This document shows positions 2,492-49,900 of a stretch of 49,900 bases of DNA, piece by piece. A program made the position numbers and the translations under genes. Each line of letters opens with the position of its first letter. The stretch's first letter is position 1. This DNA comes from Saprospiraceae bacterium. GTDB lineage: Bacteria; Bacteroidota; Bacteroidia; Chitinophagales; Saprospiraceae. The DNA lies in contig JADLCC010000231.1 of assembly GCA_020847425.1 (NCBI GenBank), positions 1-49,900 of the forward strand, given 5' to 3'. The notes beneath the pieces were generated by a model. The model saw nothing but the letters and a program-made list of their open reading frames with translations. It did not search any database and was not told where the DNA came from.

Positions 2492-2728
2492 ATGAAGACT
2501 TTCAGCATCGGCGATCTAAAAACTAATTTTTCACAAATTCTGGAGTGGGTACGTGCAGGAGAGGAAGTTGCTATTGCCTTTGGCAAGAAAAAAGAAATTG
2601 TAGCCTATCTGGTACCACGCTCTTCCCGCCCTCAAAAAAAACGACCACTCGGGCTATTGGCTGGAAAAGCAACTGCTGTGTTTCATGATGATTTCAAGAT
2701 GACAGAAGAAGAGTTTATTGGCCTATGA
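2492..2728 (+). CDS. Type II antitoxin (Phd/YefM-like, partner of PIN toxin)
   Basis: 78-aa ORF with N-terminus MKTFSIGDLKTNFSQILEWV, as in Phd/YefM-type antitoxins. Its stop overlaps the downstream PIN gene start by 4 nt (ATGA). Confidence 0.75.
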   Translation: MKTFSIGDLKTNFSQILEWVRAGEEVAIAFGKKKEIVAYLVPRSSRPQKKRPLGLLAGKATAVFHDDFKMTEEEFIGL

Positions 2729-3123
2729 CTTATTTGCTTGATACCCATACCCTTTTGTGGTCAGTCATGGAACCGACCAAATTATCGACCAAAGTCAGTC
2801 AAATTATTGAAGACCCGGAACAGCGTATTATGGTAAGCACGATCAGTTTTTGGGAAATCTCGTTGAAATACGCTTTGGGTAAATTGGAATTAGCACATGT
2901 ACTACCCAGTGACCTTCCTATCATTTGCGAGGAAATGAATATTGAAACATTGCCATTAGATGCTGAGCAATGCGCTACTTATTACCAATTGACAAAAATG
3001 TACCACAAGGATCCGTTTGACAGGATGCTCATTTGGCAAGCCAAAATCTTGGATATCCCGATTTTGAGCAAAGATGAACAAATAAAACTATATGAATCCG
3101 AAGGCATCTCCGTAATCTGGTAA
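2725..3123 (+). CDS. vapC: PIN-domain toxin, VapC family
   Basis: 132 aa. Acidic PIN signature LLDTHTLLW at the N-terminus and DPFDRMLIWQA near the C-terminus. Translationally coupled to the upstream antitoxin. Confidence 0.85.
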   Translation: MTYLLDTHTLLWSVMEPTKLSTKVSQIIEDPEQRIMVSTISFWEISLKYALGKLELAHVLPSDLPIICEEMNIETLPLDAEQCATYYQLTKMYHKDPFDRMLIWQAKILDIPILSKDEQIKLYESEGISVIW

Positions 3124-3201: not shown

Positions 3202-4203
3202 ATGAAAGTTGTGATTCCTGTTGCCGGCGCCGGCATGCGCCTTCGCCCACACACCTACACCCAACCCAAGCCCTTGATGCCGGTGGCAGGGAAACCCATT
3301 ATCCGGTTTATCGTCGACAAACTGGTGGAGGTTGGGCTCACCGATTTTGTATTCGTCATCGGATACCTGGGGGAAAAAATCCGCGATTTTATTGAGGCGA
3401 CGTACCCCGACCTGCAAACCGAATTTGTGTACCAGGAAGACCGCGCAGGTTCTGCACATGCCATCATTACGGCCCGGGAAGCCATAGAAGACGAAGACGA
3501 GATCATTATCGCTTTCGGCGACACGATTTTTGATGTGGACCTGCACCAGTTTCTCAACTGCCCGCACTCCTGTCTGGGCGTAAAAAAAGTACTGGACCCG
3601 CGCGAATTCGGGGTAGCCGAACTCGACGCCAACGATATGGTAACCCGCATGGTGGAAAAACCGCGGATTCCCAAGTCCAATATGGCTATCGTTGGCTTGT
3701 ATAAAGTGAAACAGGTGTCGGCGCTGCTGAAATCCATCGATTATCTGATTCAGAACGATATCCGCACGGTGGGCGAATACCAGCTCACCGACGCCTTGCA
3801 GCGACTGATCGAACAAGACATCCCGTTTCAGTCGATCACGGTACAAAACTGGTTCGACTGCGGGCGAAAGGAAGTGCTGCTGGAAACCAATGCCATGCTG
3901 CTGGATCAGCGCGGCTATGCCAGCGATATGTTCAATATCCCGGAGTTTGAAAACGTCATTTTTATCCATCCCGTGGCCATTGGCGCCAATTGCCATATTG
4001 CCAACAGCATCATCGGGCCGCACGTGTCTATCGGCGACAATGCCAATATCCAGCATTCGATCGTCAACGACAGCATCATCGGCAATTTTACCTCGCTAGA
4101 AGAAGTGGTGCTCAAACGCTCGGTAATCGGCAGCGATACCAGCATACGGGGCATTAATATGAGCCTGAATATTGGGGATAATACGGAGATTGATTTTCAT
4201 TGA
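3202..4203 (+). CDS. Sugar-1-phosphate nucleotidylyltransferase with C-terminal left-handed beta-helix
   Basis: Start moved to the ATG at 3202 (MKVVIPVAGAGMRLRP, a GxGxR nucleotide-binding loop). The C-terminal third has hexapeptide-like repeats (IGANCHIANSIIGPHVSIGDNANI...). Confidence 0.8.
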   Translation: MKVVIPVAGAGMRLRPHTYTQPKPLMPVAGKPIIRFIVDKLVEVGLTDFVFVIGYLGEKIRDFIEATYPDLQTEFVYQEDRAGSAHAIITAREAIEDEDEIIIAFGDTIFDVDLHQFLNCPHSCLGVKKVLDPREFGVAELDANDMVTRMVEKPRIPKSNMAIVGLYKVKQVSALLKSIDYLIQNDIRTVGEYQLTDALQRLIEQDIPFQSITVQNWFDCGRKEVLLETNAMLLDQRGYASDMFNIPEFENVIFIHPVAIGANCHIANSIIGPHVSIGDNANIQHSIVNDSIIGNFTSLEEVVLKRSVIGSDTSIRGINMSLNIGDNTEIDFH

Positions 4204-4210
4204 ATATATT

Positions 4211-4310
4211 GTTGAGGGTTGAGGGGTTGAGATTGTTGAGGGTGATAACTCACGGCCTTTAAGTTACAGCCCTCAACAATCTCAACACCTCAACGTCTCA
4301 ACCCTCAACA
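4211..4310. repeat. Word-arm hairpin, family A (GTTGAGG units), copy 1
   Basis: Left arm GTTGAGGGTTGAGGGGTTGAGATTGTTGAGGGTG. Right arm CCCTCAACAATCTCAACACCTCAACGTCTCAACCCTCAAC. Starts 8 nt after the stop at 4203. Confidence 0.85.
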
Positions 4311-4451
4311 ACAAGTTTAATCAGCCTCCTCAAACATAATTTCTCCCCCATATTCTCGTTTCTGGAAAAAATACATTTTACAAACAACCTTTTTGCCCAA
4401 AACTGCGCCTTTGCTGATGGTTTGGCAGTTGTTGTTACCGTCAAAGCAAAT

Positions 4452-7429: not shown

Positions 7430-7450
7430 TACCCGGTCCACCCAGAATAT

Positions 7451-7552
7451 TGGGACACAGATAACACAGATTTGGCTTTGCCAAAACACAGATTTTTACA
7501 GATTTGCCAAAATCCGTTTCATCTGTGTCCCATCTGTGTCATCTGTGTCCCA
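7451..7552. repeat. Word-arm hairpin, family D (CACAGAT units)
   Basis: TGGGACACAGATAACACAGAT...CACAGAT...TACAGAT is opposed by ATCTGTGTCCCATCTGTGTCATCTGTGTCCCA. Confidence 0.8.
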
Positions 7553-7610
7553 TTTTTATTGCGCCACAATCTCTCCCCCGTTTTAACGTTTTTTACCCCA
7601 AAAATCAGTT

Positions 7611-9536: not shown

Positions 9537-9958
9537 GTGAGCAAAAAGGTAAAGGGCAAGAGGCAAAGAGCAAATTTGGACACTCGATAGGGATTGATGT
9601 GTACAACTGAGCCGTATTGCATGAGATAAAACAAATGCTTGAGTGAGTGCTTATTGACGGGGTGGCTTGAAGCCACCCCGTCAATAGCCCCCCTGGCTTA
9701 CACTGCAACTGAAGCCTAAGGATTTGAATCATGAAAATCCTCTCATCTATATAATCATGGTCAAAAAAAGAGGGGCGAACGTTAATTCCGTTCACCCCTG
9801 CATATATGGACACCCGCGCTTCAATCGGGCGGGCGGAAGGACGGCAGGCCCCTCGAAGGAGGCTGCTACCGTTTTCTTGAAATGCTTGATCCAAAAAGGC
9901 AAAAGCAACCATTATCGAGTGCTCTAATTTGCCCTTTGCCTTTTGTCATTTGCCTTTT
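9537..9958. repeat. Composite ~420-nt element with family H (GGCAAAG-type) terminal inverted arms
   Basis: Left AAAAGGTAAAGGGCAAGAGGCAAAGAGCAAATTTGGACACTCGATA pairs with right TATCGAGTGCTCTAATTTGCCCTTTGCCTTTTGTCATTTGCCTTTT. Internal hairpins are present. Fills the gap between convergent stops 9536 and 9957. Confidence 0.75.
9652..9686. repeat. 35-nt perfect palindrome inside element H
   Basis: TATTGACGGGGTGGCTT G AAGCCACCCCGTCAATA. Confidence 0.7.
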
Positions 9959-15390: not shown

Positions 15391-15473
15391 GTGTTTAGTT
15401 TTTTGTGTTTAGTGTATAGGATAAGGCTGACAGTCAATCCTTTGCGAAATACAAAACACAAAAAACTAAACAC
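15391..15473. repeat. Word-arm hairpin, family G (GTGTTT-type units), copy 1
   Basis: GTGTTTAGTTTTTTGTGTTTAGTGTA is opposed by ACAAAACACAAAAAACTAAACAC. Confidence 0.8.
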
Positions 15474-15525: not shown

Positions 15526-15981
15526 GTGTTACTCGAACTCGATCTCCTTTCTTTTCAGTCCCGCCTCCGACTGTCGCAATCAGCCGGTAAACACTTTGTT
15601 TACGATCCCATCCGCAGAAAAGACATTGTGCTCACTCCGGAGGAACTGCTCCGGCAGATGGTCTTGCTGTACCTGCTGGAACATAAAAACTATCCAGCGA
15701 ACCGGATTCGGGTAGAAATTGGTATTGAGTTGAACGGCATGAAAAAGCGCTGCGATATTGTAATTTACGATCCGGAACTGCGCCCCTGGCTGCTGCTGGA
15801 ATGCAAATCGCCTAAAGTATCGCTTAATCAGGCTACTTTTGAACAGGCCGCGCGGTATAACTTACAGTTGCAAGCGCCTTTTTTAGCCATCACCAACGGC
15901 CTCGCTACTTATTGCGCCGGACTGGATTTTGAGGGTCAGAGTTTTCAGTATTTACCGGAATTGCCAGAATACTTAACGTGA
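15526..15981 (+). CDS. HsdR N-terminal-like PD-(D/E)xK domain protein (stand-alone)
   Basis: 151 aa with a GTG start. LTPEELLRQ..LLYLLE.KNYP...I.VE..I.LNG..KRCDIVIYD....PWLLLECK...L matches the type I restriction enzyme HsdR_N small-protein family pattern, including D...ExK. Confidence 0.65.
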   Translation: MLLELDLLSFQSRLRLSQSAGKHFVYDPIRRKDIVLTPEELLRQMVLLYLLEHKNYPANRIRVEIGIELNGMKKRCDIVIYDPELRPWLLLECKSPKVSLNQATFEQAARYNLQLQAPFLAITNGLATYCAGLDFEGQSFQYLPELPEYLT

Positions 15982-16081
15982 GTGGTGAATCGTGAATCGT
16001 GAGTTGCATTGGTGAATAAGAAAAGTTCGTTCATTCCTTTAACGAAATGCCACTCACGATTCACGACTCACGATTCACGAC
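15978..16081. repeat. Word-arm hairpin, family C (CGTGA(A/G)T units), copy 1
   Basis: GTGAGTGGTGAATCGTGAATCGTGAGT is opposed by CACTCACGATTCACGACTCACGATTCACGAC. Spans the whole gap between convergent stops. Confidence 0.85.
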
Positions 16082-17317: not shown

Positions 17318-17437
17318 ATGGAACACGGACTGGACGGATTGGACACGGATTTTTTCCCATAGTACCCCATCGCAACAACTCTGCTATACGGAGGAAAAGA
17401 AAAAATCCGTGCCCAATCCGTCCAATCCGTGTTCCAT
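17318..17437. repeat. Word-arm hairpin, family E (GGAC(N)GGATT units)
   Basis: ATGGAACACGGACTGGACGGATTGGACACGGATTTTTT is opposed by AAAAAATCCGTGCCCAATCCGTCCAATCCGTGTTCCAT. Confidence 0.85.
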
Positions 17438-18923: not shown

Positions 18924-18938
18924 CGCGGATTTCTTTTA

Positions 18939-19033
18939 CCACAATAGGCACATAGAGCCTCCACATAGATCACACATAAGATGCGTGATGTCTTTTATGT
19001 GATCTATGTGGAGGTTCTATGTGCCTATTGTGG
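18939..19033. repeat. Word-arm hairpin, family F (CACATAG units)
   Basis: CCACAATAGGCACATAGAGCCTCCACATAGATCACACATAAG is opposed by CTTTTATGTGATCTATGTGGAGGTTCTATGTGCCTATTGTGG. Confidence 0.85.
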
Positions 19034-19048
19034 TGAAAACTCCTGCGT

Positions 19049-20713: not shown

Positions 20714-20807
20714 AATGTTGAGGGGTTGAGGGGTTGAGATTGTTGAGGGTGGTCACTCAAGCCTGGGTTACAACCCTCAACAATCTCAACACTCAACATT
20801 CTCAACC
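20714..20807. repeat. Word-arm hairpin, family A (GTTGAGG units), copy 2
   Basis: GAATGTTGAGGGGTTGAGGGGTTGAGATTGTTGAGGGTGG is opposed by AACCCTCAACAATCTCAACACTCAACATTCTCAACC. The loop is similar to copy 1. Confidence 0.85.
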
Positions 20808-21887: not shown

Positions 21888-21994
21888 GTCGTTACGTGAG
21901 TCGTGAGTCGTGAATCGTGAGTGGCGTTAACTCAGACATCTGCTTAAAAGTGAAACACCACTCACGATTCACGACTCACGACTCACGTAACGAC
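21888..21994. repeat. Word-arm hairpin, family C (CGTGA(A/G)T units), copy 2
   Basis: GTCGTTACGTGAGTCGTGAGTCGTGAATCGTGAGTGG (21888-21924) is the exact reverse complement of 21958-21994, giving a 37-bp perfect stem and a 33-nt loop. Confidence 0.9.
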
Positions 21995-25777: not shown

Positions 25778-26006
25778 AATTTGTGTTTTGGTGTTTTTGT
25801 GTATTAGTGTTTTAGAGGTCGTTGCTAAATAACTGAGTATATCAGGCCTATGTTTTACAATCTGTTTTGGGGCAATGCACTACCAAAACACAAAAATACT
25901 AAGTAAAAGGGCAAAATTGCAAAGAGCAAATGGCAATGTTAATCAATGAGTTACAGAAGAATTAGTTCAAACTAATTTTGCTTGATTACTTAAAACACTA
26001 AAACAC
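25778..26006. repeat. Composite element with family G arms and an embedded family H fragment
   Basis: TTTGTGTTTTGGTGTTTTTGTGTATTAGTGTTTTAG is opposed by ACCAAAACACAAAAATAC and TAAAACACTAAAACAC. Positions 25906-25938 carry GGGCAAAATTGCAAAGAGCAAATGGCAA, sharing GCAAAGAGCAAAT with 9567-9579. Confidence 0.7.
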
Positions 26007-26960
26007 TTATTGCTTCCGGATCAAACGCATCGTCACCCCGATCATAAACAGCGACAGCAGCGCTGCAAACCACGGCACCTGAATATCCTGTTCGAGATCG
26101 ACGACCGAACTGTTGTCGCCGGCAACATATTGACCTACAATTTGAATGCCGTTATTGAAAAAATGCGCGATCACGGGCACCCAGAAATTGCGTGTTTGCC
26201 AGTACAACCAGCCCAACAAAAAACCCAGCAACAAGCGGGGCAAAAAACCTTCAAACTGGAAATGAAAAAAACTGAAAACCGCCGCAGATACCAGCAGCGC
26301 CGACCATGGGTTGGTGATGCGGCGCATCAGCTGCTGCTGCACAACCCCGCGGAAAACGATCTCTTCACCAATAGCCGGAAGCAGGGCAATGAGCGTCAGA
26401 TTGCCCAAAAACTCGCCGAAATGATCCATTCTGAGCAGGGCTTTGATGGCTTCATTGGCTTGTTGTTCCATTTCATGAAAGGAGTCCGGCAGCGGCAGCA
26501 TCTTGTTGATCTGGAATAAATAAAGCACCAGGGGTACCGAAACCAGCAACAGCAGCATAGCCAGGCCCGCCGTGCGCCAGGAAGGCCATTGCCGGGATTG
26601 CAGGTAGTCGGCCCAGCCAGGTACCGGCCGGGTGATGCCCCGGTAAAACAACCAAACCGTTAGAAAACCTGCAGCGGAGAAGGTAGCGAAATGCCGGAGT
26701 CCGAGCAAAAAACGCATTTTCCAGCGCTCCGGCTCCAGGGCATCGGCAGGCAACATGCCCGACATCAGGCTTTCATCCCAGCCGCCGATTTGCACGATCG
26801 CCTGGCAGACTACAGTGGAGATACCTGCAAAAAATAGGCATCCTGCAAACAGCGCCAGCAGCACAGCGCTTACTTTGGGTGATGCCGGTTTCCAGGAAGC
26901 AGCCAGCTCCGGATTGGAAGTGGTCTGGAACTTATCCGGTCGATTTGGGTTTTCATCCAT
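26007..26960 (-). CDS. CPBP-family intramembrane glutamic endopeptidase (CAAX protease/Abi)
   Basis: Motifs PAIGEEIVFRGVVQ (EExxxR), FSFFHF and IAHFFNN within TM helices. Confidence 0.85.
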   Translation of the reverse strand: MDENPNRPDKFQTTSNPELAASWKPASPKVSAVLLALFAGCLFFAGISTVVCQAIVQIGGWDESLMSGMLPADALEPERWKMRFLLGLRHFATFSAAGFLTVWLFYRGITRPVPGWADYLQSRQWPSWRTAGLAMLLLLVSVPLVLYLFQINKMLPLPDSFHEMEQQANEAIKALLRMDHFGEFLGNLTLIALLPAIGEEIVFRGVVQQQLMRRITNPWSALLVSAAVFSFFHFQFEGFLPRLLLGFLLGWLYWQTRNFWVPVIAHFFNNGIQIVGQYVAGDNSSVVDLEQDIQVPWFAALLSLFMIGVTMRLIRKQ

Positions 26961-31553: not shown

Positions 31554-33023
31554 ATGAATACGTATAAATTCAAATTCATACTTGTGCTGGTTTTGGGCCT
31601 GGTACTTCCCTTTACTTCCTGTAAGGACTACCTGGATGTCAACGTCAACCCTAACCAGTCCGCAACTTCCCGTATCGACCTGCAGCTCACCGGCGCTATC
31701 ATCGGTACATCCATTGGAATCGGACAACGCATTTTTCCGGAACTCGGCGTTTGGTGCCAGTACCAGACAGGTGGCCCGGGTGTTGCTTTGAGCGACTGGG
31801 ATCAGCACAAATTGAGCGCCTCGGAATGTGATGAATTGTTCAGAGAATTGTACAGAAGCAGTTCAAACCTGAATTATATCATCAATAAATCTACTGAGCT
31901 CAATTACATAGCCATCGCAAAAATTCTCCGGGCCAATAATTTCCACATTTGTGCGGATGTATTCGGCGATGTTCCTTACACAGAGGCATTAAGCGGCGAT
32001 ATTGAAGATGGCTCTATACTGCACCCCAGGTTTGAAAGCGCCAAGGATGTCGTATATCCAGCAATCGAAAGTGAACTGCTGGAAGCCATCGACCTGATCT
32101 CCAGGGGTGCTGCGTTTGTTCACCCTGGCGCGGATGACCTGATTTACCATGGCGATATGGAACTCTGGGATAAGTATGCCCACTCTTTGTTGCTGAAAGT
32201 TTACCTGCGCCAGGGCGCAGCCGGGCAGGCAAAATTGGCAGCGCTGTACACCAGTGACGACCAGTTTATCCTTACGAACGATGAAGCCGCAAAGGTTCCT
32301 TTTCCAGGTGGCTCTGCAGGCAGCAACCCTTTCTGGAATACTGCAAAAAGTTCTGCATTGGGCAATTATTATATTGCTACCACTACAATAATGGACCACC
32401 TGAGCGCTACGCAGGATCCACGCCTCGATGCTTTTTTTGACCCGACTCCTGCCGGCGTACATGCCGCATTGCATCCTGGAGATATCCAGAGTCAACCGCT
32501 TACAGCACAGTTTTCCTCACCAGCCGGCGCAAAATCTCCAACAGGAGGACTACTTTTCGCCCCGACTGCTCCGGTATTCTTCATGTCTGCATGGGAAAGC
32601 AATTTGCTGCTGGCAGAAGCCGCTGCAAGGGGGTGGATCACTGCTGATGCCGACGCACTGTATGCCGATGCCGTACATGAAAATTTTGAATACGCCGGAC
32701 TGGATGCAACTGCTGCTGATGATTACCTGGCTGCCGGTGGCGCGATCGACGCAAGCAATAAGATCAAATCTATTGCCATCCAGAAATGGATTTGTATGAA
32801 CGGCACGCAACCTATCGAGTCCTGGATCGAAACCCGAAGATTGGACAGCCCGGCAACGCCGATTTTCGCTTCGCCTGGCGGTTTGTTCAAATCACCAACC
32901 AGCAACGCTTTGGGAGCCGGCATTTACCCAAGCATTTTGCCCTATTCGGAAAATGAACAGAGCCTGAACCAGAATTTCCCGGGGCAGAATGCACTCACGG
33001 ATAAAGTGTTCTGGGACAACTAA
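31554..33023 (+). CDS. SusD/RagB-family nutrient-binding lipoprotein (copy 1)
   Basis: Begins 20 nt after SusC. Lipobox LPFTSCKDYLDVNVNPNQ and C-terminal WIETRR...FPGQN....VFWDN are typical of SusD-like proteins. Confidence 0.88.
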   Translation: MNTYKFKFILVLVLGLVLPFTSCKDYLDVNVNPNQSATSRIDLQLTGAIIGTSIGIGQRIFPELGVWCQYQTGGPGVALSDWDQHKLSASECDELFRELYRSSSNLNYIINKSTELNYIAIAKILRANNFHICADVFGDVPYTEALSGDIEDGSILHPRFESAKDVVYPAIESELLEAIDLISRGAAFVHPGADDLIYHGDMELWDKYAHSLLLKVYLRQGAAGQAKLAALYTSDDQFILTNDEAAKVPFPGGSAGSNPFWNTAKSSALGNYYIATTTIMDHLSATQDPRLDAFFDPTPAGVHAALHPGDIQSQPLTAQFSSPAGAKSPTGGLLFAPTAPVFFMSAWESNLLLAEAAARGWITADADALYADAVHENFEYAGLDATAADDYLAAGGAIDASNKIKSIAIQKWICMNGTQPIESWIETRRLDSPATPIFASPGGLFKSPTSNALGAGIYPSILPYSENEQSLNQNFPGQNALTDKVFWDN

Positions 33024-33044
33024 AAAATTAAGATCGTTCACAAA

Positions 33045-33207
33045 GTTGACGAAGGTTGATGAGGGTTGATGAAGGTTGATGAAGGTTTATAAAGGTTGAT
33101 AATACACATCTCGGAAGAGACAAATCGCTTCATTTTAGAGCGGATGTATGATCAACACTTATCAACTTTTATAAACCCTTATCAACCTTTATCACCCCAT
33201 ATCAACC
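33045..33207. repeat. Word-arm hairpin, family B (10-nt GGTTGATAAG-type units), copy 1
   Basis: Six 10-nt units (GTTGACGAAG GTTGATGAGG GTTGATGAAG GTTGATGAAG GTTTATAAAG GTTGATAAT) are opposed by ATCAACACTT ATCAACTTTT ATAAACCCTT ATCAACCTTT ATCACCCCAT ATCAACC. Confidence 0.85.
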
Positions 33208-33257
33208 TTGCAAGGCAGCCACGTGCTCATGAACATCATTCACAAACTCAATCAATT

Positions 33258-34082
33258 ATGAAAAATAAAATTCTATTGCTTTCTTCACTCTTGGCAGCTT
33301 GTTTTTTACTAATCATGGCCTGTCACAAAATTGAAGACAATGACTCCGTTGTTCGGGCAAGTTCCATCCCATTTATCGCTATCCAAAATGTAAATAGTGC
33401 ATATGTGTATGGGCAAGGACAAACCAGTATTTATTCCGATATCCCCGACGTGCTGGCTATTGCTGTTGACTCTGTTGTAGGTTTTGAAGGCGGTTACGGT
33501 GGCAAAACCGGTTCTGACTCGATCAAAATTTTGAAAAGTGAAATTGTAATCTGGCCAGACACCGTAAGCCTTGGCGGCAAAGCAATAACGGTTGAGAAAT
33601 TTAATAAATCCAATTTCAAAACCTTTGTCACCACCAATATCGTTATCGCAGGCCCTATCGCCAACCCCGGCCCAACGGCTATGGAAGGTGGTTACCTCAG
33701 GGCGGCTACCGGCGTCACCATCCTATTAAAAAAGGTGTTTGACGGCGTTTACGTTATCGATAACGCGGGTGGTGCAAATGTGGCTCCATTTCCTTACCTG
33801 TTGTACAATTACAAAAGTTCCAGCGGTACCGACAGCCTTGCATTCCCCATTCAACCCAATGAATGCGGAGGCGGCCTTCAACTGGTTGGTCCAACTGCTC
33901 CGTTCTCTTTGCGCGCATCGGATTATGCAACACAATACCCACCAATCATTGCATCTATGGCTCCTGTGACGCTGCAATGGCGTGTGTTCACATTCTCTTC
34001 CGCATCTAACGCCGCCGTTCAGCCAGGCAACGGTGGTTTGTGCACCTGGGGCGTAGGCGTCAGGACATTTGTGAAGCAATAA
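33258..34082 (+). CDS. PUL-associated lipoprotein of unknown function (copy 1)
   Basis: Start trimmed to the ATG at 33258 (MKNKILLLSSLLAACFLLIMAC lipobox); the longer ORF reads through hairpin repeat B1. Paralog of 34228..35049. Confidence 0.7.
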   Translation: MKNKILLLSSLLAACFLLIMACHKIEDNDSVVRASSIPFIAIQNVNSAYVYGQGQTSIYSDIPDVLAIAVDSVVGFEGGYGGKTGSDSIKILKSEIVIWPDTVSLGGKAITVEKFNKSNFKTFVTTNIVIAGPIANPGPTAMEGGYLRAATGVTILLKKVFDGVYVIDNAGGANVAPFPYLLYNYKSSSGTDSLAFPIQPNECGGGLQLVGPTAPFSLRASDYATQYPPIIASMAPVTLQWRVFTFSSASNAAVQPGNGGLCTWGVGVRTFVKQ

Positions 34083-34110: not shown

Positions 34111-34151
34111 ACAAGAGTCATCCCGTTTGTTCGGGATGACTCTTGTTTTTT
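34111..34151 (+). terminator. Intrinsic terminator of PUL copy 1
   Basis: Perfect 15-bp stem ACAAGAGTCATCCCG/CGGGATGACTCTTGT, 6-nt loop, then a T6 run. Confidence 0.75.
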
Positions 34152-34161
34152 GGGGAAAGGC

Positions 34162-34197
34162 AAAAAAAAACGCGGGTGCTGTTTGGCAGCACCCGCG
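34162..34197 (-). terminator. Intrinsic terminator of PUL copy 2
   Basis: On the minus strand, stem CGCGGGTGCTG/CAGCACCCGCG is followed by a T9 run (A9 at 34162-34170 on the plus strand). Confidence 0.75.
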
Positions 34198-34227
34198 TCA
34201 TCATTACAGGTAAAAAAATACCCTGAA

Positions 34228-35049
34228 TTATTGTTTTTCAAACGTCCTGACACCTGTACCCCACTGGCATAAGGCAACGCCTGTATGACCGGAACTGGCA
34301 CGGGCAGCTGGGAATTCAAACACCTTCCAGCTCACCGTCAGCGGAGAAGTTGCTGTAATGGCAGGCGGGTGTTGAGCAGAATATTCCGCACTGGTCAGAG
34401 ACAGTGGAGCACCTGGCGCTACCAGTTGCAGACCACCTGCACAAGGATTGGACTGGATCGGGAAAGCAAGGCTGTCGCCGCCCAAAGCGTTCTTGTAATT
34501 GTAAAACAGGTATGGGAAAGGAGCAACAGCTGCACCACCCGGGTTGTCGATGACATAAACACCATCAAATACCTTTTTCAATTCGATCAGCACACCGTTC
34601 GCAGTCCTTTTATAAGTGCCTTCCATAGCCGTTGGGCCGGGGTTGGCAATAGGACCTGCGATAACGATGTTGGAACTGATCGCTACCTTGAAGTTGGCTT
34701 TATTGAACTTCTCGAAAGTAACAGACTTACCGCCGAGCCCAACAGTATCAGGCCAGCCTGTAATGTCACTTTTCAGGATCTGAATGGAGTCGGAGCCGGT
34801 TTTACCACCGTATCCGCCTTCAAAACCAACTAAAGTGTCAACAGCAACAGCAACAACGTTTGGAATGTCGCTATAGATGCTGGTTTGTCCTGCTCCATAT
34901 ACATAAGCATCGTTGATGTTTTGAATAACGATGAATGGAATGGACGTGGTAACTACCGTGGAGTCATTGTCTTCAATTTTGTGACAAGCCGCGATGATAA
35001 AAACGCAGCATGCCAAAAGAGAAGAAAGCAATAGAATTTTATTTTTCAT
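34228..35049 (-). CDS. PUL-associated lipoprotein of unknown function (copy 2)
   Basis: 273 aa with lipobox MKNKILLLSSLLACCVFIIAAC. Collinear with copy 1 through blocks such as GFEGGYGGKTGSDSI, NIVIAGPIANPGPTAMEG and KKVFDGVYVIDN. Confidence 0.7.
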   Translation of the reverse strand: MKNKILLLSSLLACCVFIIAACHKIEDNDSTVVTTSIPFIVIQNINDAYVYGAGQTSIYSDIPNVVAVAVDTLVGFEGGYGGKTGSDSIQILKSDITGWPDTVGLGGKSVTFEKFNKANFKVAISSNIVIAGPIANPGPTAMEGTYKRTANGVLIELKKVFDGVYVIDNPGGAAVAPFPYLFYNYKNALGGDSLAFPIQSNPCAGGLQLVAPGAPLSLTSAEYSAQHPPAITATSPLTVSWKVFEFPAARASSGHTGVALCQWGTGVRTFEKQ

Positions 35050-35169
35050 AATCGAATGAGTTTTTTTAAAGAATGTCCAAGAATGTGTGGCGAACCTTTT
35101 ACAACGTATTGATTTTCAAAAAATTGCACAAGGTGCGCCACACAGGCACTTATGAACGCTCTTGATTTT

Positions 35170-43745: not shown

Positions 43746-43807
43746 CCGCGTAAACTTGAAGAGGCGCAACGGGAGATATCCTGTTGCGCCTCTTCAAGTT
43801 TACGCGG
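43746..43807. terminator. 25-bp perfect hairpin between convergent genes (possible bidirectional terminator)
   Basis: CCGCGTAAACTTGAAGAGGCGCAAC (43746-43770) is the exact reverse complement of 43783-43807. 12-nt loop and no U-tract. Confidence 0.5.
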
Positions 43808-49580: not shown

Positions 49581-49588
49581 GTTTTTGA

Positions 49589-49757
49589 GGTTGATAAGGG
49601 TTGATAAGGGTTGATAAAGGTTGATAAAGGTTGATAAGGGTTTATAAGGGTTGATAATAGCCACTCAAATAGAGGGAAATCACGTCATCGAGTGCCCCTT
49701 ATAAACCCTTATCAACCCTTATCAACCTTTATCAACCTTTATCAACCCTTATCAACC
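49589..49757. repeat. Word-arm hairpin, family B (10-nt GGTTGATAAG units), copy 2
   Basis: Seven 10-nt units are opposed by six CCTTATCAAC-type units, with about two mismatches over ~60 bp. Lies between convergent stops 49580 and 49764. Confidence 0.9.
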
Positions 49758-49763
49758 TACACA

Positions 49764-49900
49764 TTATTGCAGCGCAAACCGCACCGGCAGCGTAAACCGC
49801 ACTTTCACTGCATGGCCGGCGGCTTCACCCGGTGTCCAGCGCGGCATGTTTTTGACCACGCGCAGGGCCTCTTTGCCACATCCGCCGCCGATTTCTTTCA
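49764..49900 (-). CDS. TonB-like protein, C-terminal domain (3' end only; gene continues beyond the window)
   Basis: My minus-strand translation gives KEIGGGCGKEALRVVKNMPRWTPGEAAGHAVKVRFTLPVRFALQ*, matching the TonB C-terminal pattern (GCG.EA.R....P.W.PG...G..V.......P..F). Not in the ORF track because it is truncated. Confidence 0.55.
   Translation of the reverse strand, partial: KEIGGGCGKEALRVVKNMPRWTPGEAAGHAVKVRFTLPVRFALQ

Follow-up and report, generated by a model that had tools for sequence, protein, structure and literature searches.

A palindromic repeat with tandem-unit arms, probably inserted at one of two paralogous SusD-lipoprotein junctions in a Saprospiraceae bacterium

Introduction

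Repetitive extragenic palindromic (REP) sequences and REPINs of Pseudomonas and Enterobacteria are mobilised by RAYT transposases of the Y1 HUH type and carry a terminal GTAG or CGTC tag (PMC3116915, PMC3733652). Here we describe B1, a 164-nt hairpin (33046-33209) lying between a SusD-like gene and a lipoprotein gene in a 49,900-nt stretch of a Saprospiraceae bacterium (assembly GCA_020847425.1, contig JADLCC010000231.1, positions 1 to 49,900 of the forward strand, hereafter the window), together with the dispersed repeat, family B, to which it appears to belong. REP and REPINs are the closest known class. Like them, family B consists of short non-coding hairpins with many copies between genes; both often lie at the 3' ends of genes or within operons, leave no target-site duplication and keep their pairing by compensatory change, and intercistronic copies can alter mRNA stability. 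Family B is dispersed as these elements are, but neither terminal GTAG nor CGTC was found in its core and arm alignments. It also conserves a central core and not the arms, which are tandem units of 7–11 nt, variable in copy number and often unequal. No RAYT gene was found near the family copies examined, and the host belongs to the Bacteroidota (Saprospiraceae).

Three other kinds of element share some of these features. MITEs (miniature inverted-repeat transposable elements), including the Porphyromonas gingivalis 'BrickBuilt' elements with their minisatellite (PMC4596501), are small, non-autonomous, dispersed and intergenic, and BrickBuilt, in a Bacteroidota genome, likewise joins a tandem repeat to a conserved frame. 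Terminal inverted repeats, target-site duplications and a recognisable parent insertion sequence (IS) characterise MITEs, whereas family B has no duplication and its repeat units themselves form both arms of one hairpin. The pneumococcal BOX element, boxA-(boxB)n-boxC (PMC3049150), is modular, with variable tandem internal units and a stable predicted stem-loop, and is dispersed and intergenic as family B is. However, its units are 45 nt long and lie between complementary ends instead of inside both arms, it has no sequence relationship to family B, and it comes from another phylum. Intrinsic terminators resemble B1 in placing a stem-loop just 3' of a stop codon, but B1 has no U-tract, an A/T-rich stem of 50–60 bp and a position inside an operon. 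The TAACTGA repeats (PMC4679880) are direct repeats upstream of start codons, not hairpin arms. No description of tandem-arm hairpins in Saprospiraceae, Bacteroidota or cyanobacteria was found in the literature searched, and the build of family B, a central core between arms of tandem units, is apparently undescribed.

Results

B1 and its family

B1 is probably an old, partly decayed, non-autonomous copy of family B, a palindromic repeat dispersed in Saprospiraceae, and was inserted after the duplication that produced the two gene sets around it. These sets are convergent and, as an earlier sequence-only reading of the window had stated, clearly paralogous, with amino-acid identities of 83% for SusC, 75% for SusD and 70% for the lipoprotein. 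The copy-1 gap runs from the end of the SusD stop codon (33023) to the lipoprotein ATG (33258) and measures 234 nt (33024-33257). The same reading had the element fill this gap from 33045 to 33207, within 2 nt of the boundaries measured here, and had noted that the 120-nt gap of copy 2 (35050-35169) holds no decamer unit; a pattern scan of that gap likewise returned 0 matches.

The arms of B1 are built from GGTTGATRAG decamers (unit consensus GTTGATGAAG) and are 86% complementary to each other. Units of the left arm read, in order, TTGACGAAGG, TTGATGAGGG, TTGATGAAGG twice, TTTATAAAGG and TTGAT. The pattern GGTTGATRAR, allowing at most one mismatch, matches 34 times in the window where 11.7 matches are expected, an excess of about 3-fold, and the matches cluster at 33054-33207 (B1) and 49589-49757 (B2, a second element of the family). 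Predicted RNA folding energies are -84.2 kcal/mol for the + strand (z -10.2) and -79.9 kcal/mol for the - strand (z -7.2); as single-stranded DNA, B1 folds at -42.6 kcal/mol (z -8.2).

Metagenome contigs from the Joint Genome Institute (JGI) were scanned for 2.7 units, which returned at least 120 stretches; family counts come from the matches listed. A gapless hairpin finder run on about 1 Mb of the listed metagenome loci recovered at least 229 long hairpins, at least 71 of them with B-type arms. In both DNA and RNA runs, k-mers of the arms occur at 5–60 times the depth of the flanks and beside many different flanks. Family B was defined by GGTTGATRAG arms, G-rich on the 5' side and C-rich on the 3' side, around a 61–64-nt core with CTCG...CGAG. 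A canonical copy has about four decamers, a 50-nt core hairpin and about four complementary decamers, for a length of about 120 nt. The core consensus consists of ATTCAKCSRCTCG, a loop of about 23 nt (ADRAAGWRAAAAAT..YYCYTWCC) and CGAGYSGMTGAAT, and the distance between the innermost GTTGAT and ATCAAC is 56–66 nt, mostly 61–64, in 51 copies; 49 distinct cores have a uniform length of 61–64 nt. GTTGAT/ATCAAC and CTCG/CGAG are invariant in the core and arm alignment. Both the sequence of the core and, through compensatory changes, its pairing have been conserved: 89% of the stem is paired, seven pairs have changed on both sides, and the covariation score was reached by 0 of 500 shuffles.

B1 fits this definition, with about six units per arm, the G-rich to C-rich arrangement and a core that matches the family hidden Markov model (HMM) in the forward direction (23 bits forward versus 15 reverse). 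Its centre (AATACACATCTCGG-AAGAGACAAATCGCTTCATTTTA-GAGCGGATGTATG) scores as a member of the family core, of which it is a decayed copy, with decay in the left inner stem. Among the family copies listed, its nearest cores are those of loci L038, L039, L076 and L033, which show the sub-type to which B1 belongs. B2 begins 8 nt past the stop codon of a DUF4397/type IX secretion system (T9SS) gene, and its centre also scores as a family member.

Arms of four plus four units are modal in the family, unit numbers vary independently on the two sides, and unequal arms are frequent (e.g., 4/12, 10/28 and 17/7 units). Because many copies have one arm expanded, slippage appears to act on each arm separately. 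Cores of family-B type (..GCCACTCG..CGAGTGGC..) were also observed between arms of other units, at L071 3375-3709, L051 4658-4801 and L042 500-656, where the arm units are GTTGAGG (L071), GGTTTATA and GTTTATGG. The evolution of the core seems to be separate from that of the arm units. Neither the window nor the family loci, where the whole element is the palindrome, showed a candidate parent IS. A search of Rfam gave 0 matches at the gathering threshold and, at E<=1, only sub-threshold models of plant and animal microRNA precursors, which are generic long hairpins.

B1 interrupts an older junction hairpin

Sequences on either side of B1 resemble the two parts of one hairpin arm. B1 splits this older left arm between ...CACAAAG and GCAAGGCAG, leaving CGTTCACAAAG upstream of the element and GCAAGGCAG downstream. 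When 33046-33209 is taken out, the rejoined CGTTCACAAAG and GCAAGGCAG match the uninterrupted arm of the relative L016 (CGTTCATGAAGGCAAGGCAG) at 18 of 20 positions. Homologs of the left flank are found in copy 2 (AAGAGCGTTCA), L006 (AAGAGCATTCA) and L016 (CGTTCATGAAG). The loop and right arm of the older hairpin have been mostly lost since the interruption. The sequence-only reading had proposed a check for target-site duplications, and none was found: the boundaries of B1, ending in CACAAAG and resuming with GCAAGG, share at most 1 nt, and across the family the longest direct repeat between flanks averages 2.79 nt compared to 2.80 in shuffled pairings. The palindrome continues for at least 8 nt into the flanks in 21% of copies versus 3.8% of controls, from which it follows that such copies, like B1, sit inside larger hairpins.

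The copy-2 junction has a structure of its own and is no empty site. Its inner hairpin (35084-35144, 61 nt) is non-repetitive, folds at -37.5 kcal/mol on the sense strand (z -5.3) and lies inside a basal stem (35069-35163). An alignment of the two junctions identified a post-stop segment (AAAAT[T/C]AAGA.CGTTCA) and a pre-ATG segment (TG[A/G]ACAT...AAACTCA.TC.ATT) common to both copies. In both copies these outer segments pair as a basal stem around either inner hairpin, and L006 keeps the basal stem too. A structured junction thus existed before the duplication.

To place these junctions in a history, a protein-guided scan covered one genome per species. It identified 17 loci, all from Saprospiraceae, Lewinellaceae or other Bacteroidota metagenome-assembled genomes (MAGs), and the junctions fall into the types given in Table 1. 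Several of the unique hairpins have the motifs GTGTGGC and GGCAAGGC in common, in addition to the basal stem. In a neighbor-joining tree of SusD, B-type junctions form one sub-clade of the copy-1 clade, (L003,(L018, window copy 1)). The sister copy-1 junctions (L004b, L005b and L016) and all copy-2 junctions have unique hairpins without B-type arms. Both paralogs are present in L004 and L005, arranged convergently as in the window, and the element is missing from both junctions in each genome. The tree and these two relatives indicate that the element arrived after the duplication, in copy 1 only. Of the earlier proposal that the element was inserted or expanded in one copy, or deleted from the other, after duplication, entry into copy 1 is thus upheld by the survey of orthologous junctions; a reading of copy 2 as an empty site is not upheld. 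Absence from the sister copy would be an ordinary insertion difference.

Nucleotide identity between the window and L018, in blocks of 300 nt, is 73–93% (mostly 84–93%) through SusC and SusD, and falls from about 90% to about 72% directly after the junction (L018 5850-6000). Because the drop occurs right at the junction, recombination must have occurred at the hairpin. The lipoprotein genes have a history that differs from that of SusCD, with the breakpoint between the window and L018 at the hairpin. A Logan contig, L001, was considered as an empty copy-1 site and rejected, since it carries the copy-2 SusD end and the copy-2 junction. In L001 (1-2781) and in a contig of run X3, these are joined to lipoprotein 1 through 32 nt in which the two paralogs do not differ (ATTATGAAAAATAAAATTCTATTGCTTTCTTC). 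Such a join is either a chimera of k=31 assembly or a recombinant haplotype that really exists.

Transcription across the two junctions

The sequence past the B1 stem, CCTTGCAAGGCAGCC (reading CCTTGCAAGG...), has no T run, and a terminator scan reports nothing at B1. Two canonical intrinsic terminators stand back to back in the 145-nt convergent gap between the lipoprotein genes and show what true operon ends look like in this organism (Table 1). With no U-tract at B1 and the real ends located there, B1 is not a terminator and is instead an intra-operon structure.

The RNA data were eight metatranscriptome runs, available as sparse Logan contigs that are unstranded and of low depth. RNA of SusD1 was found in 7 of the 8 runs and RNA of lipoprotein 1 in 0 of 8, and one RNA contig (32945-33088) extends from SusD1 into the left arm of B1. 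Lipoprotein 2 RNA was found in three or four of the 8 runs, and a single 1333-nt RNA contig (34278-35610) spans SusD2, the copy-2 hairpin and lipoprotein 2, indicating read-through. About 15 contig pieces map to SusD1, and equal abundance would predict about 8 for lipoprotein 1 (rough Poisson estimate, P ~2e-4). It is plausible that B1 has a REP-like barrier or processing role stronger than that of the copy-2 hairpin, and the RNA pattern fits such a role. The very stable RNA stem of B1 would most likely act like intercistronic REP elements, of which the malE-malF REP is an example that alters mRNA stability. As an RNase target or a barrier to 3' exonucleases, it would protect the susCD mRNA and lower the lipoprotein message relative to copy 2.

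Weighing alternative explanations

Several observations weigh against an inserted family-B repeat. Each of the three B-type junctions (window, L018 and L003) has a core of its own, and their outer boundaries differ too; a single insertion must therefore have been followed by replacement of the core or by recombination. The left flank GTTCACAAAG keeps the register of the decamers and agrees with them at 7 of 10 positions, so that some local growth is conceivable. Among 26 proteins of the window scanned against Pfam (of about 32 open reading frames [ORFs] of at least 100 aa), none gave a transposase domain, and clustering of 703 ORFs from element-bearing loci identified no recurrent small ORF beside the elements; family gene contexts rest on crude ORF calls. 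Low-depth, unstranded RNA contigs cannot quantify attenuation, and the missing lipoprotein 1 RNA could reflect strain content or assembly thresholds.

Growth of the hairpin in place, without import, is an unlikely alternative, although it fares best among those considered. Slippage would have duplicated a stem segment, and intrastrand templated repair would have carried the copies to the other arm. Such an origin agrees with the likeness of GTTCACAAAG and its L016 counterpart GTTCATGAAGG to the decamer GTTGATGAAGG, with the one-sided arm expansion of many copies, and with the different tandem-arm hairpins at orthologous gene ends in close relatives, which fit rapid local turnover. However, the 50-nt core of B1 is non-tandem and homologous to cores at dozens of unlinked loci on other contigs, a result that slippage cannot yield, and the split match with L016, whose arm is uninterrupted, shows B1 to be a block that was inserted.

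Less probable again is a selected regulator acting in the sense RNA, with B1 recruited and kept as an attenuator or processing signal and G·U pairs marking selection on the plus strand. The sequence-only reading had taken three G·T oppositions at the same unit position as a hint of such selection. The oppositions themselves are present (33061/33200, 33071/33190 and 33081/33180), and the other mismatches, read by hand, are a fourth G·T at 33094/33167, one A·C, one A·A and one T·C, giving four G·T versus one A·C on the sense strand. The better fold of the + strand, the conservation of a hairpin at this junction across the clade, including the basal stem common to the paralogs, and the missing lipoprotein 1 RNA would all be in line with a regulator. 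The family as a whole points elsewhere. That unit position is polymorphic, reading GATGAG or GATAAG partnered by CTCATC or CTTATC, with both forms common; G·T runs occur in L038, L061, L076, L082 and L086, and A·C runs, which are as common in other copies, in L026, L048, L074 and L108. Copies co-directional with their genes have 28 G·U versus 36 A·C oppositions on the sense strand (6 versus 10 when counted by hairpin), all family-B hairpins listed have 92 versus 117, and core orientation relative to the gene is random (15 versus 11). Copies are about equally frequent in divergent gaps and elsewhere, the three G·T oppositions are probably one event, and the core stem of B1 has decayed. With no family-wide excess of G·U and random core orientation, selection on the sense RNA was not borne out. 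A single purine/pyrimidine (R/Y) unit variant, homogenised within one arm, best accounts for the run in B1; an A-to-G change would have spread over three neighboring left-arm units.

It is very unlikely that B1 is a DNA-level array whose phased, inverted 10-bp units bind a nucleoid, partition or recombination protein, with the hairpin incidental. In favor of such an array, the 10-bp period corresponds to one turn of the helix, conservation of the unit sequence is strong over many genomes, and the junction coincides with a recombination breakpoint. In contrast, sister families have units of 7, 8, 9 or 11 nt with quite different sequences, compensatory changes keep the core paired, and the arm arrangement is reversed in 0 of the 71 family-B copies listed, which always follow hairpin order. 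A repeat-induced misassembly that made a false palindrome can practically be dismissed: repeat arms do break de Bruijn assemblies, and L001 does join the copy-2 junction to lipoprotein 1, but contigs of three independent DNA metagenomes (2015 and 2021) reproduce the SusD1-arm-loop-arm-lipoprotein 1 path exactly, with contigs identical to 33003-33091, 33062-33284, 33003-33147 and 32975-33180, so B1 is real and not an artefact of assembly.

Other features of the window and of related loci

Feature coordinates are collected in Table 1. Neither lipoprotein (33258-34082 and 34228-35049) has a Pfam domain; the search with the copy-1 protein returned no match. An AlphaFold model of the lipoprotein (predicted local distance difference test [pLDDT] score 77) has 5fq8_G and 5fq3_A as its top Foldseek matches (E 4e-5, template modeling [TM] score ~0.4), and on this model it resembles BT2262, the accessory lipoprotein of the Bacteroides thetaiotaomicron BT2261-2264 SusCD complex. 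No gene for a carbohydrate-active enzyme (CAZyme) is adjacent to the locus, and for that reason the label of polysaccharide utilization locus (PUL) may be loose.

Table 1. Features at the copy-1 and copy-2 junctions, further hairpins in the window, and junction types in related loci
Feature	Position or locus	Strand	Description
SusD-like gene, copy 1 (upstream cistron)	31554-33023	+	Pfam SusD-like_2, E 1e-54; 75% identical to copy 2
Left flank, start of the left arm of the older intercistronic hairpin	33030-33045	+	AAGATCGTTCACAAAG; 33032-33040 predicted to pair with 33230-33237 (fold)
B1 left arm	33046-33100	+	About 5.5–6 decamers; Tandem Repeats Finder period 10, 5.6 copies; pattern matches
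B1 core, 50 nt	33101-33150	+	Inner stem AATACACATCTCGG / AGAGCGGATGTATG, loop AAGAGACAAATCGCTTCATTTTA; core alignment and HMM
B1 right arm	33151-33209	+	About 6 complementary decamers, ATCAACACTT ... ATATCAACCTT; Tandem Repeats Finder period 10 and 20
Older-hairpin remnant	33210-33237	+	GCAAGGCAG (rest of the interrupted left arm), CCACGTGCTCA, basal-stem partner TGAACATC
Lipoprotein gene, copy 1 (downstream cistron)	33258-34082	+	Product resembles BT2262 accessory lipoprotein of a SusCD complex
Canonical intrinsic terminator, lipoprotein 1	34113-34151	+	GC-rich stem and T run, read from the sequence
Canonical intrinsic terminator, lipoprotein 2	34160-34199	-	Terminator scan and sequence
Copy-2 intercistronic hairpin	35069-35163	-	Inner stem 35084-35144 (TGTGTGGCG.ACCTT...) and basal stem; 0 decamer units
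B2, second family-B element, better preserved	49588-49758	+	7+6 units; arms 97% complementary
Ten further tandem-arm hairpins	4199-4321, 7446-7557, 9544-9958, 15391-15473, 15977-16080, 17318-17437, 20717-20806, 21888-21994, 25780-26007, 49588-49758		
Junction of 10–56 nt, no hairpin	L008-L015, L019		Distant orthologs
Junction with weak hairpin	L007		
Junction with unique non-repetitive hairpin, 93–130 nt	L006; L004a, L005a, L017; L004b, L005b, L016		L004a, L005a, L017 copy-2-type; L004b, L005b, L016 copy-1-type
Junction with tandem-arm hairpin, B-type units	L003, L018, window copy 1		

The window has 26 intergenic gaps with a length of 60 nt or more; about 14 of them contain a long hairpin, and about 10 of these have tandem-unit arms, from at least five unit families. 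Units of the ten further hairpins include GTTGAGGG (twice), CGTGAGT (twice), GTGTTTA/GTGTTTTA, GGACACGGATT, CAGATAACA and AGGCAAAG, and the metagenome loci listed add 35 further unit families. On both strands, 33 of these 35 families have a 5' arm rich in G with almost no C. This polarity was found in all 66 family-B hairpins with a loop below 130 nt and in 43 of 45 other tandem-arm hairpins, with a weaker bias in non-tandem hairpins (64 versus 30). Enrichment of 6-mers gave no convincing core motif common to all unit families, and only a CACTC(G/A) signature recurs in several of them. A preference for gene 3' ends, suggested in the window by long hairpins in 2 of 8 divergent gaps versus 11–12 of 17 others, was unconfirmed in a larger set (0.12 per divergent gap versus 0.15–0.17, p 0.43).

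Hairpins 3' of the DUF4397/T9SS gene differ among orthologs. The window has B2 at this position (49581-49765), L140 has a hairpin of ATGATGA units (1852-1998, 92% protein identity), L141 has one of GAGTATTT units (2357-2475, 86%), and L142 has a canonical terminator (2501-2621, 83%). No clean pair of filled and empty sites was found for B2 among these relatives, which carry other hairpins and have a different downstream neighbor gene. One hypothesis is that hairpins at gene ends turn over quickly through a hairpin-seeking process.

Two non-tandem hairpins were also observed, one between convergent genes (43746-43807, 29-bp arms 97% complementary, 4-nt loop) and one between co-directional genes (18934-19038, 48-bp stem, -83 kcal/mol). 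A convergent gap of 420 nt (9537-9956) folds at -170 kcal/mol, with outer arms of AGGCAAAG-type units and several nested inner hairpins, and may be a composite of nested elements. A PIN-domain gene (2725-3123, Pfam E 1.5e-12) follows a 444-nt gap, and its product may be the toxin of a toxin-antitoxin pair.

Discussion

We propose that a family-B element entered the older junction hairpin through a copying process without target duplication. One candidate is single-strand transposition directed by hairpins, as in REP/RAYT or IS200/IS605, and template switching or gene conversion from another copy would be an alternative. Each arm would then have evolved by unit slippage. For the original observation at the two junctions little changes: a dispersed repeat found in one copy but not in the other amounts to a normal difference by insertion, and the hint of selection on the RNA dissolves. 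For annotation, long hairpins 3' of susD genes in these genomes are not terminators.

More tentatively, Saprospiraceae genomes may harbor palindromic mobile elements of a superfamily not described before, each with a conserved core hairpin and expandable arms of 7–11-nt units, though the balance still tips against so broad a reading. Features that point to it are the dozens of unit families, some with the same core, a single rule of arm polarity that nearly all follow, nesting in hairpins, the absence of target duplications, mutual replacement at the same gene ends within about 10% divergence, and coincidence with breakpoints of recombination or synteny. If such a superfamily exists, hairpin-seeking elements would remodel operon junctions and terminators, and the polarity rule would constrain the making or the tolerance of these elements, one possibility being that a C-rich, Rho-loading 5' arm is avoided whichever way transcription runs.

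Small palindromic repeats have been well studied in Proteobacteria as REP and REPINs, and no description of a Saprospiraceae counterpart was found in the literature searched. Family B is worth keeping in its own right. With a conserved core, tandem arms prone to slippage, a strict polarity (G-rich 5' arm), no target duplication and nesting in older hairpins, its build is tractable for studies of the way such elements are copied and of how they reshape operon junctions in abundant wastewater bacteria.

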